Assembly: GCA_964016885.1 (NCBI GenBank)
Contig: OZ024756.1
Coordinates: 1,302,001-1,366,000 of the forward strand
Origin: Eledone cirrhosa
Taxonomy: Eukaryota
Direction: 5' to 3'
DNA: 64,000 nucleotides
Part shown: positions 26,724-31,139 of the stretch, piece after piece
Numbering within the stretch: position 1 is the first letter of the stretch
Layout: each line of letters starts with the position of its first letter
Made by a program: the position numbers and the translations under genes
Notes under the pieces: generated by a model
Database searches by the model: none
What the model was told of the DNA's origin: nothing
Seen by the model: the letters and a program-made list of their open reading frames with translations, nothing else

Positions 26724-28045
26724 TATATTGTATTGATTTTTATACATTAAATTTTGCTCTGGTACTTATATAGAGCACTCTTCACTTCTATGACCTTTTC
26801 TGTTTTCAACGGAAATTTCAATACATATATATATATATATATATATATATATATATATATATATATATATACATATATATATATATATATGTATATATAT
26901 ATATATATATGTATATATATATATATATATATATATATATATATATATATATATATATATATATATATATATATATATATATATATATACATATATATAT
27001 ATATACATATATATATATATATATATACATATAGAGAGAATTGAGGTTGTTAATGGCACATGGAATATATAAGAGACAGAATACTTTTTTGTGAAAAAAC
27101 ATATTATTTTATAAGGTAAGGAAAGAATAAAAAGTTTCAATTTGAATGGGAAATTCCTGTTTCATCGATTTTCTCCGTAACCATGGAAGCTTGTACCTAA
27201 AAGTCGACCCAACACCTCCTCGGGTCATTCAGCATAACTGTGTAAATTTTCGCTGCATTCCACCAAGCCATTTCGACGTTTATCCGACTACACTTACTTA
27301 CTTACTTAAATATACAACGTCCGACCACTTCCAATTTATATAGTAGATATATATATAATATATTATATATATATAGTATATATATTATATATATATATTG
27401 AATATTATATATATATATATATATATTGAATATTATATATATATATTACAAATCTCAAATTTTAACTCTTCTTATTATACATTTTTCTTAACATTAATCA
27501 ACATTTCAAAAGATAGCTTTTGCAGACCCATCGAAACCGGTCATTTTTTATACCCTTTATTCTTTCCTTACCTTATAAAATAATGTTTTTTCACAAAAAA
27601 GTATTCTGTCTCTTATATATTCCATGTGCCATTACCAACCTCAATTTTCTCTCTCTCTCTCTCTCTCTCTCTCTCTCTCTCTCTCTCTCTCTCTCTCTAT
27701 ATATATATATATATATATATATATATATATATATATATATATATATAAATTGAAACAAAATGAAAACGAAATTTCATTTCTCACTCTTAGTATGGCACTT
27801 ACTTAAATGTAAGTATGCATGTATACGTACATACATATATGTATACAGACGTACAGTAGCATGCACATATATATATATATACATATATACATACATATGC
27901 ATACAGGTACACATACATATATGCACGTATCAGTTTAGCGGCGCTAACGTCGCTTTGTTCGTTTGTAAACAAACTGAACAGCCTGAATTTATGCCATACG
28001 GTGTTAAGGCAACCACGTCACCTTTTTGTTCAACACTGACACAGG

Positions 28046-28090
28046 AACGATGTACTAGTTTCAAGCTTGTTAGCTATCATCAGCACCGTT
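28046..28090 (-). ncRNA. Minimal type I hammerhead (464-bp unit)
   Basis: AACGGTG-CTGATGA-tAGCtaacaaGCTt-GAAA-CTAG-TA-CATCGTT. Confidence 0.85.
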
Positions 28091-28509
28091 TACCCATCTG
28101 CCAGATAGTTGAACGTTCGAAAGTATATACTTTCCTTATGAAAATTAACGGCTGAGCAGCCTAATTTGCATATTGAGTGAGTTAAATCGGTCAGGCATAC
28201 CGAAAACGATAAATTGAAACAAAATGAAAACGAAATTTCATTTCTCACTCTTAGTATGGCACTTACTTAAATGTAAGTATGCATGTATACGTACATACAT
28301 ATATGTATACAGACGTACAGTAGCATGCACATATATATATATATACATATATACATACATATGCATACAGGTACACATACATATATGCACGTATCAGTTT
28401 AGCGGCGCTAACGTCGCTTTGTTCGTTTGTAAACAAACTGAACAGCCTGAATTTATGCCATACGGTGTTAAGGCAACCACGTCACCTTTTTGTTCAACAC
28501 TGACACAGG

Positions 28510-28554
28510 AACGATGTACTAGTTTCAAGCTTGTTAGCTATCATCAGCACCGTT
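28510..28554 (-). ncRNA. Minimal type I hammerhead (464-bp unit)
   Basis: Identical motif, one unit downstream. Confidence 0.85.
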
Positions 28555-29092
28555 TACCCATCTGCCAGATAGTTGAACGTTCGAAAGTATATACTTTCCT
28601 TATGAAAATTAACGGCTGAGCAGCCTAATTTGCATATTGAGTGAGTTAAATCGGTCAGGCATACCGAAAACGATAAATTGAAACAAAATGAAAACGAAAT
28701 TTCATTTCTCACTCTTAGTATGGCACTTACTTAAATGTAAGTATGCATGTATACGTACATACATATATGTATACAGACGTACAGTAGCATGCACATATAT
28801 ACATATATACCTGTATGCATATGTATGTATATATGTATATATATATATATATGTGCATGCTACTGTACGTCTGTATACATATATGTATGTACGTATACAT
28901 GCATACTTACATTTAAGTAAGTGCCATACTAAGAGTGAGAAATGAAATTTCGTTTTCATTTTGTTTCAATTTATCGTTTTCGGTATGCCTGACCGATTTA
29001 ACTCACTCAATATGCAAATTAGGCTGCTCAGCCGTTAATTTTCATAAGGAAAGTATATACTTTCGAACGTTCAACTATCTGGCAGTTGGGTA

Positions 29093-29137
29093 AACGGTGC
29101 TGATGATAGCTAACAAGCTTGAAACTAGTACATCGTT
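29093..29137 (+). ncRNA. Minimal type I hammerhead (464-bp unit, inverted arm)
   Basis: CTGATGA 29100-29106, GAAA 29121-29124, CTAG, TA, stem I AACGGTG/CATCGTT. Confidence 0.85.
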
Positions 29138-29556
29138 CCTGTGTCAGTGTTGAACAAAAAGGTGACGTGGTTGCCTTAACACCGTATGGCATAAATTCAG
29201 GCTGTTCAGTTTGTTTACAAACGAACAAAGCGACGTTAGCGTCACTAAACTGATACGTGCATATATGTATGTGTACCTGTATGCATATGTATGTATATAT
29301 GTATATATATATATATGTGCATGCTACTGTACGTCTGTATACATATATGTATGTACGTATACATGCATACTTACATTTAAGTAAGTGCCATACTAAGAGT
29401 GAGAAATGAAATTTCGTTTTCATTTTGTTTCAATTTATCGTTTTCGGTATGCCTGACCGATTTAACTCACTCAATATGCAAATTAGGCTGCTCAGCCGTT
29501 AATTTTCATAAGGAAAGTATATACTTTCGAACGTTCAACTATCTGGCAGATGGGTA

Positions 29557-29601
29557 AACGGTGCTGATGATAGCTAACAAGCTTGAAACTAGTACATCGT
29601 T
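29557..29601 (+). ncRNA. Minimal type I hammerhead (464-bp unit, inverted arm)
   Basis: CTGATGA at 29564, same fold. Confidence 0.85.
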
Positions 29602-31139
29602 CCTGTGTCAGTGTTGAACAAAAAGGTGACGTGGTTGCCTTAACACCGTATGGCATAAATTCAGGCTGTTCAGTTTGTTTACAAACGAACAAAGCGACGT
29701 TAGCGCCGCTAAACTGATACGTGCATATATGTATGTGTACCTGTATGCATATGTATGTATATATGTATATATATATATATGTGCATGCTACTGTACGTCT
29801 GTATACATATATGTATGTACGTATACATGCATACTTATATATATATATATATATATATATATATATATATATATATATATATATATATATATATATATAT
29901 ATATATATATATATATATATATATATATATATATAGAGAGAGAGAGAGAGAGAGAGAGAGAGAGAGAAAATTGAGGTTGGTAATGGCACATGGAATATAT
30001 AAGAGACAGATTACTTTTTTGTGAAAAAACATAATTTTATAAGGTAAGGAAATAATAAAGGGTATAAAAAATGACCGGTTTCGATGGGTCTGCAAAAGCC
30101 ATCTTTTCAAATGTTGATTAATATTAAGAAAAATTAATAATACGAAGAGTTAAAATTTGAGACTTGAAAATTCAAGTATAAATTTCATTGTGGGATTTCA
30201 TAGCAGTTTTCATCTAGGTAGCAACAACAGGTTGACTGCTGTGTCCCTTTCTGGTAGTGAATGAGAAGTTATTTGGGGTGTGGGTTATTTTATAAAGGTG
30301 AGATTTAGCAATCACCAACTGGCCAGCTGCTGGTCAGTGAGGGGGTGGAAGCAATATACATACACATCTTCCTGTGATGGGTAGGAGAGTGGAGCGTGAT
30401 AGAAAGGGATTTAGTGCACTTACACCTATATATACACACATACCTACATCCACACATACATACATATACATATACATATATATATATACATATATATACA
30501 TATACACACATACATATACATACACACATACACACACACACATATATACACATACACACACACACACACATATATATATATATATATATATATATATATA
30601 TATATACACACACACACACATATATATACATACACATACATCCAGATACACACATACATACACACACACACACACACATATATATATATACACACATATA
30701 TATATATATATATATATATACACACACACACACCCCCACACATACATACACACACATATATATATACACACACACACACACACACACACACGCATATATA
30801 TATATATATACACATACGCATACATCCAGATACCCACATACATACACACACACACACACACGCACACACAATACATACATCCACATGCACACACATACAC
30901 ACACACACACATATACACATACATACACCCACACACAGAGAAATGGCCTTCAAATATATATATATATATACATACAGACACATATATTTTTTCCATAATA
31001 TAAGAAGTTGGGGCAGTGAAATTAAAATAGAAGTCATTCTGATCACATTGAGTTCTTCATGTAGATTGGGCCCCGCAACCGACAGTGGTGAATTCTGTGT
31101 GCGCATATATATATAGATATATGTGTGTGCACGTGCAGG

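Follow-up and report, generated by a model that had tools for sequence, protein, structure and literature searches.

Paired end sites and inverted arms in a hammerhead repeat family of Eledone cirrhosa suggest two primings by a Penelope-like enzyme

Metazoan retrozymes of the non-LTR type (LTR, long terminal repeat), as defined by Cervera and de la Pena in 2020 (PMC7229834) and in PMC7761336, are short, non-coding, low-GC tandem units that carry one type I hammerhead ribozyme each and occur in thousands of copies in genomes that also harbor Penelope-like elements (PLEs). Li et al. 2026 (bioRxiv 10.64898/2026.07.22.740005) derived them from pseudo-long-terminal repeats (pLTRs). Here, we analyzed a 2.1-kb palindrome of 464-bp hammerhead units from Eledone cirrhosa, located at 27746-29837 of the window (the whole 64,000-nt stretch of contig OZ024756.1 under analysis; all coordinates refer to it). 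The palindrome is a young member of the non-LTR retrozymes with the insertion signature of PLEs, and it is an ordinary one among thousands. All of the above features were shared with the described retrozymes, including the presence of PLEs in the same genome (131 scored, near-identical frames with a reverse transcriptase (RT) and a GIY-YIG-type domain). In contrast to them, the unit measures 464 nt rather than the published 150-400 nt or so, and most sampled copies are inverted with fixed paired ends. The word "inverted" is absent from PMC7229834 and occurs in Li et al. only within a reference title. The palindrome is likely a retrozyme insertion into (TA)n by a PLE RT/endonuclease acting in trans, with two primings on one RNA.

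Endonuclease-positive PLEs are a close match with regard to the insertion itself. They carry inverted arms and a 30-40-bp tail that is often one-sided, they are biased to (TA)n, and the mechanism is left open in PMC8557442; the origin of inverted repeats and tail is called unresolved there and in PMC3846280. The palindrome shares with them an inverted 5'-truncated arm, a tail at one end, the (TA)n bias and the lack of a readable target duplication (PMC8557442; PMC3846280). It differs in that the same papers call the tail optional or often one-sided, whereas the pairing of ends reported below is near-absolute. The Poseidon element PAc of Anolis was studied in vitro by Frangieh et al. 2024 (PMC11167929), who found both strands of the target cleaved and extended, with two internal sites on the RNA, one at either boundary of the tail, serving as starts. 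Two such start sites, cutting and extension of both strands, and AT-rich targets are points of likeness; unlike the genomic copies described here, which imply one start of each kind per insertion, the two products of one event are unpaired in that work. Twin priming of L1 (Ostertag and Kazazian 2001, as summarized in PMC9148063) involves two target ends that prime on one RNA, as may be the case here, and likewise leaves the sense 3' ends outward. In the present family, by contrast, there is no poly(A) primer, both sites are internal and fixed, and the repeated template turns an inversion into a long palindrome.

An earlier note, made by a model from the letters of the window, had described the 2.1-kb palindrome of 464-bp units, and this description was borne out. 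The arms 27804-28809 and 28838-29843 (1006 nt each, 28-nt spacer) are 99% complementary, and Tandem Repeats Finder returned a period of 464, with 2.4 copies at 27745-28850 and 2.2 copies at 28794-29837. The parts of the insertion are given below, where P and D denote the proximal and distal end sites and unit numbering starts at the predicted ribozyme cut.

27648..27747, no strand: (TC)n(TA)n target tract left of the insertion; its (TA)n part, 27698-27747, adjoins the D end
27746..28810, minus strand: left arm (D arm), about 2.3 units; sense 3' end at D (unit position 307)
27746..27809, minus strand: tail of 64 nt that separates the P site from the D site; carried by the left arm only and lacking from the right arm
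28808..28810, no strand: head-to-head join; 3 nt (TAC) fit both arms
28808..29837, plus strand: right arm (P arm), about 2.2 units; sense 3' end at P (unit position 243)
29131..29594, plus strand: a single monomer of 464 nt, bounded by predicted cuts and highly structured (z -7.2)
29838..29967, no strand: (TA)n(GA)n target tract right of the insertion; its (TA)n part, 29838-29935, adjoins the P end

The inversion had been placed near 28825, which fits the symmetry axis (28823.5); the actual join lies at 28808-28810, and the right arm extends 20 nt farther upstream in the unit than the left arm. As noted earlier, the arms differ at few positions, namely 29086, 29242 and 29244, all within the inner right unit, and by an 8-nt (TA)4 loss near 28800. 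The 29242/29244 pair has one copy in the genome and the 29086 variant four, and T at 29086 was absent from the contigs of two sequencing runs. Because the variants are nearly private and the T at 29086 was unseen in contigs, they may be late mutations or consensus errors; with so few copies genome-wide, they were rejected as a sign of mixed templates. Both ends lie within (TA)n, and a target-site duplication is therefore unreadable. The unit has a GC content of about 0.35, and its sole overlapping open frame (172 aa) is microsatellite-derived. No open frame with RT plus GIY-YIG was found within 27746-29837; thus, unlike the endonuclease-positive PLEs, the element is non-autonomous. In the predicted fold of the monomer, a long AT-rich hairpin stops immediately short of the P site.

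A search of the 3.0-Gb genome, which the earlier note had proposed, yielded 10,651 exact copies of the 32-nt ribozyme core; the control yielded 0. We sampled 52 stretches around clusters among the first 100 matches listed. They contained 58 elements, 35 of which were two-armed, with arms diverging as at the locus. Sense 3' ends fell at two sites, P (240-253, mostly 243, 246 and 249) and D (307), and (TA)n came next in nearly every case. P ends were scattered over their interval; D ends were sharp. Exact junction patterns of the young subfamily numbered 910 for D and 979 for P. Arms reached 10 or more perfect units of 464-476 nt without coding DNA between them, and one-armed copies ended at P or at D.

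The pairing of the two end types was followed in three overlapping samples. The first drew on the first 100 matches listed per end type, all of them on contig C1. Up to position 334 Mb, 96 D and 100 P junctions yielded 57 pairs within 10 kb. Every one of the 57 was D+P and was placed as expected for the two ends of an insertion, with 0 D+D and 0 P+P (p about 1e-17 for even odds). In the ribozyme-chosen sample both ends were resolved for 25 of the 35 two-armed elements, 22 by script and three by eye, and every one was P+D; at L041, one of these, the D end was slightly shortened. One end of the other 10 was interrupted or lay beyond the stretch. Finally, 60 loci were chosen on a D end, and 41 of them had a contiguous second arm, which ended at P. 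Ten of the remaining 19 were inspected by eye and had no second D end of the same insertion, showing instead P ends after rearrangements or no second arm. One misaligned locus (L108) was excluded from arm counts. The neighboring PLE described below, which served as a comparison family and is not assigned as the mobilizer, gave a similar picture: a tail of about 36 nt lies between its two ends (949 and 994 exact junctions), and adjacent left-right pairs within 10 kb on C1 were 47 D+P, one D+D and 0 P+P. The fixed pairing of P and D ends points to two separate primings rather than to a fold-back.

Neither strict P/D pairing nor inverted retrozyme insertions were found in the literature searched, the scope of which ended before subscription papers and supplements (notably that of PMC11167929). 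The pairing appears to be new, and the published one-sided tail already hints at such a rule.

Evidence for a single event came from the likeness of the arms. In a diagnostic segment of about 120 nt, the two arms of 16 two-armed mixed-subfamily loci differed by 1.4 letters within a locus vs 10.3 between loci. Unit length was locus-specific, equal on both arms in six of seven loci and, for the most part, constant within arms, which held as many as 10 units. Arm likeness and uniform units fit one template copied repeatedly. Together with the 464-nt unit length shared by the arms at the locus, they supported the single insertion proposed in the earlier note. The arms are joined via 1-8 nt of microhomology: overlaps, taken from local alignment ends, were at least 2 nt at 17 of 37 joins (18% at random) and at least 3 nt at 10 of 37 (7% at random). 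Furthermore, of the 29 D arms no longer than 300 nt, six had a length of 54-66 nt and so stop at P (p 0.002, for an interval chosen post hoc). The other primer, if placed there on the same RNA, would have this effect; a pause at a bound protein would equally explain it.

The earlier note had also named four hammerheads with helix III CTAG that read away from the center, and the motif scan confirmed them.

28053..28083, minus strand: type I hammerhead core; predicted cut after 28053
28517..28547, minus strand: type I hammerhead core; predicted cut after 28517
29100..29130, plus strand: type I hammerhead core; predicted cut after 29130
29564..29594, plus strand: type I hammerhead core; predicted cut after 29594

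The four are identical, two per strand, and one is found at each of the four unit boundaries. Helix I of the motif has 7 bp and helix III reads CTAG; the core is CUGAUGA, helix II has U.U at its base, and the site is GUA. CUGANGA, GAAA, NUH and a closed helix I are all present. The predicted helix III duplex has -6.8 kcal/mol. Of 342 hammerhead motifs collected from the family, 234 are identical, and an older subfamily differs by a G.U to U.G swap in helix I plus a change at the free position 7. U.U at the helix II base is also known from axolotl HHR_Amex2, a weakly cleaving motif (PMC7229834). Palindromic helix III, action as dimers, U3-A8 cores and hammerhead pairs on opposite strands have been described (PMC4209133).

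The following course of events would account for these observations. First, the transcript of a tandem copy would be cleaved by the hammerheads in it, which probably act as dimers, and the resulting monomer circularized, so that the template RNA is probably circular. The PLE enzyme would bind the region from P to D and nick both strands of (TA)n. One strand would then prime cDNA at P and the other at D, about 60 nt apart, as the observed end positions suggest. Each polymerase would circle the template and stop at a variable point, a step suggested by the uniform multi-unit arms, and repair would join the cDNA ends head to head through the short overlaps observed. The outcome would be two arms diverging from the center, one tailed and one tailless. 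That PLEs are bound to such asymmetric twin priming, each of the start sites bounding the tail being used once, one per strand, on a single RNA, is possible, though we place it a little short of probable.

Several points weigh against two primings on one circular RNA. The join is crossed by no read or contig, 28748-28892 having been skipped as repeat. The motif replaces the G10.1-C11.1 pair by U.U and has a helix III of only 2 bp, its core is absent from the predicted monomer fold, and an Rfam scan at the gathering threshold found no hammerhead, so that the ribozyme call rests on the motif scan. The tail measures 58-64 nt vs 30-40 nt in published PLEs, and the unit is dissimilar to the neighboring PLE. 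In PMC11167929 ribozyme cleavage was dispensable for insertion in vitro, and start sites did not differ between strands. The pairing lists cover the first listed matches on one contig, and the D+D exception of the comparison family is a true inner inversion, in a cluster with outer ends P and D. At L126 the arms differ in unit length (462 vs 467). Single letters of the young subfamily had no discriminating power (0.39% within vs 0.47% between loci; shuffle range 0.31-0.63%), and subfamilies separated in time may also give like arms. Only six of 58 D arms stop at 241-253; since most run past P, strand displacement or staggered starts would be required.

Some of these points would be accommodated if the two target ends were primed on two RNAs, each serving one subunit of an enzyme dimer, or on a linear multimer left uncleaved, an alternative that we consider unlikely. 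Arm lengths were uncorrelated (rho -0.08, 42 loci), which is compatible with it, as are the D arms that pass P and the unequal arms of L126; moreover, PLE protein is a predicted dimer and uncleaved RNA was used in vitro (PMC11167929). Two RNAs do not readily account for arms that share locus-specific segments and unit lengths, for units that are mostly uniform within an arm, or for the excess of D arms stopping at P.

Alternatively, both arms might start at D, or the cDNA be made whole, and the endonuclease trim one end to P at resolution; PMC8557442 suggests endonuclease resolution of an intermediate for the PLE tail. Trimming likewise predicts a tail at a single end, and it fits scattered P ends next to sharp D ends. 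It is nevertheless rather improbable, given that one-armed copies end at either site, that D arms consisting of the tail only stop at P, and that both boundaries of the tail served as start sites in vitro (PMC11167929).

The insertion signature, being the same as that of PLEs, and the reported derivation of retrozymes from pLTRs (bioRxiv 10.64898/2026.07.22.740005) would also agree with the unit being the truncated 3' end (pLTR) of an autonomous PLE not yet found, instead of an independently copied retrozyme. Arms of 10 or more perfect units without coding DNA between them argue against it. When the four PLE proteins of the window were compared by tblastn with 133 loci, fragments were found nearby and, by eye, none ran into the 5' side of the unit. 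We regard this origin as quite improbable.

Self-priming has been proposed for PLE inversions (PMC3846280), and PLE papers explain them by this route or by endonuclease resolution. A fold-back, which the earlier note had considered, would make the second arm a self-primed copy of the first cDNA or of antisense RNA. The join at the locus does lie in a self-complementary AT-rich hairpin, and a few loci (e.g. L028) have nearly equal inner ends. Yet in 19 of 41 palindromes, and also at the locus, the P arm goes beyond the D arm on the upstream side; these are not fold-back copies because such a copy cannot exceed its template. In the reverse order, P-primed cDNA has no tail to copy. In addition, the inner ends of the two arms lie mostly at unrelated unit positions. 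A fold-back is thus very unlikely, and we are fairly confident that the palindrome arose from two primings instead.

An artifact of sequencing or assembly is extremely unlikely, even though nothing spans the join and the arm differences, with the T at 29086 unseen in contigs, may be consensus errors: beyond about 300 nt the flanks cease to mirror each other, the ends follow the family-wide P/D rule, and short-read contigs of the independent run X1 contain 12 listed arm-to-arm joints at other positions.

If obligate asymmetric twin priming is true, it explains the inversions and one-sided tails of PLEs in one step, and the insertion scars would be records of PLE proteins copying circular retrozyme RNA in a rolling manner, with both strands as starting points. 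Up to now, retrozymes and PLEs have been linked by co-occurrence and phylogeny; according to PMC7761336, the repeats lack a motif naming the partner. As a constraint on integration by PLE enzymes, the end rule of the family is new and open to test; for the existing in vitro assay it predicts one P and one D start per target. The family offers about 900 sharp junctions per end type, along with an autonomous family that behaves in parallel and has many intact frames of 777 aa.

The genome would accordingly hold many long perfect inverted repeats, potential sources of double-stranded RNA (dsRNA) if read through. For the palindrome itself, read-through would give about 1 kb of dsRNA, as the earlier note had suggested; its second suggestion, that monomers are released by transcription in either direction, is doubtful, since the antisense arm is transcribed first either way and might base-pair with the ribozymes ahead of their folding. 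Judged from its sequence, a palindromic copy is more likely to be a source of dsRNA than of monomers. Scars of adenosine-to-inosine editing were sought in family copies, and 98 changes included 14 A>G vs 10 T>C, i.e. no A>G excess. As to expression, no RNA run with the unit was present among the listed runs, and two runs guessed to be RNA gave no match; run X6, the type of which is not on record, contains the unit.

Words of the unit were 35-83% present in the runs of ten organisms labeled otherwise (including X4-X14) and in one metagenome. Horizontal transfer was rejected in favor of a probable carry-over of the high-copy repeat between libraries. The unit was found in 25 contigs of organism E with a summed depth of a few hundred, compared with 4080 contigs and several hundred thousand in organism A, which amounts to about 1/1000 of the depth; raw reads of organism E and contigs of organism B gave 0 (contigs of three of the ten organisms were compared). 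Three peculiarities of single loci were seen. Long arrays at L006 and L007, 11.6 kb apart on contig C239, have an identical uneven run of unit lengths (498-510 nt) and are probably a segmental duplication. At L096, the D arm comprises the tail alone and abuts unrelated sequence with another hammerhead-like motif and then a P-like end, possibly through a template switch between families. A small inverted (TA)n-associated repeat often adjoins insertions (L029, L032, L040, L115, L182).

A further inverted match of 305 nt (93%), overlooked in the earlier note, links the flanks 27446-27750 and 29865-30169. It was rejected as a pre-existing hairpin target, the flanks being two separate 3' ends of the neighboring PLE family.

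27446..27650, plus strand: about 200-bp 3' stub of the neighboring PLE family (short end), a separate insertion
29964..34275, minus strand: autonomous PLE, 4.3 kb, with an open frame at 31270-33903 (877 codons); ends in the same (TA)n tract

The frame of the autonomous PLE contains an RT (Pfam RVT_1) and, by eye, a C-x4-C-x2-C linker and a GIY-YIG-type C-terminus; the linker marks the Neptune and Nematis clades (PMC8557442). With its 131 scored copies at 99-100% and many 777-aa frames, the family is, to judge from these sequences, young. It was rejected as the parent of the 464-nt unit for want of similarity (best E 3.8 in a comparison of 30 loci falling short of the PLE 3' terminus; best E 0.41 in one that reached it). 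Near its 3' end, at 30067-30115 (minus strand), lies a motif resembling a hammerhead, in which U3-A8 replaces C3-G8, helix III is the palindrome CCGG and the site is GUC. In the sampled loci, 26 of its 28 matches, some of them overlapping, were identical; U3-A8 hammerhead cores are known (PMC4209133).

At least two other families are represented on the minus strand by PLE-like frames or fragments with RT/GIY-YIG, at 828-2303, 36403-37852 and 43694-44167, which are candidates for the mobilizer. A second hammerhead repeat, with a 310-bp unit and U.U at the helix II base, occupies about 45,000-46,440. It lies between (TA)n runs, consists of 3.7 units on the plus strand plus one inverted arm, and likewise shows a short end and a tailed one (n=1). 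Further type I hammerhead motifs with a long helix II occur at 34372-34420 (plus), 46537-46586 (minus) and 26656-26713 (plus), the first two of which look like one family. Two near-identical tRNA-like sequences diverge 6 nt apart (44745-44815, minus; 44822-44892, plus), possibly an inverted pair of short interspersed nuclear elements. The window also contains long RT frames of the long interspersed nuclear element type (11069-12778, 22274-24337, 49807-52236) and, at 61574-63793, a 2.2-kb (GTG)n-type trinucleotide array with extreme strand skew.

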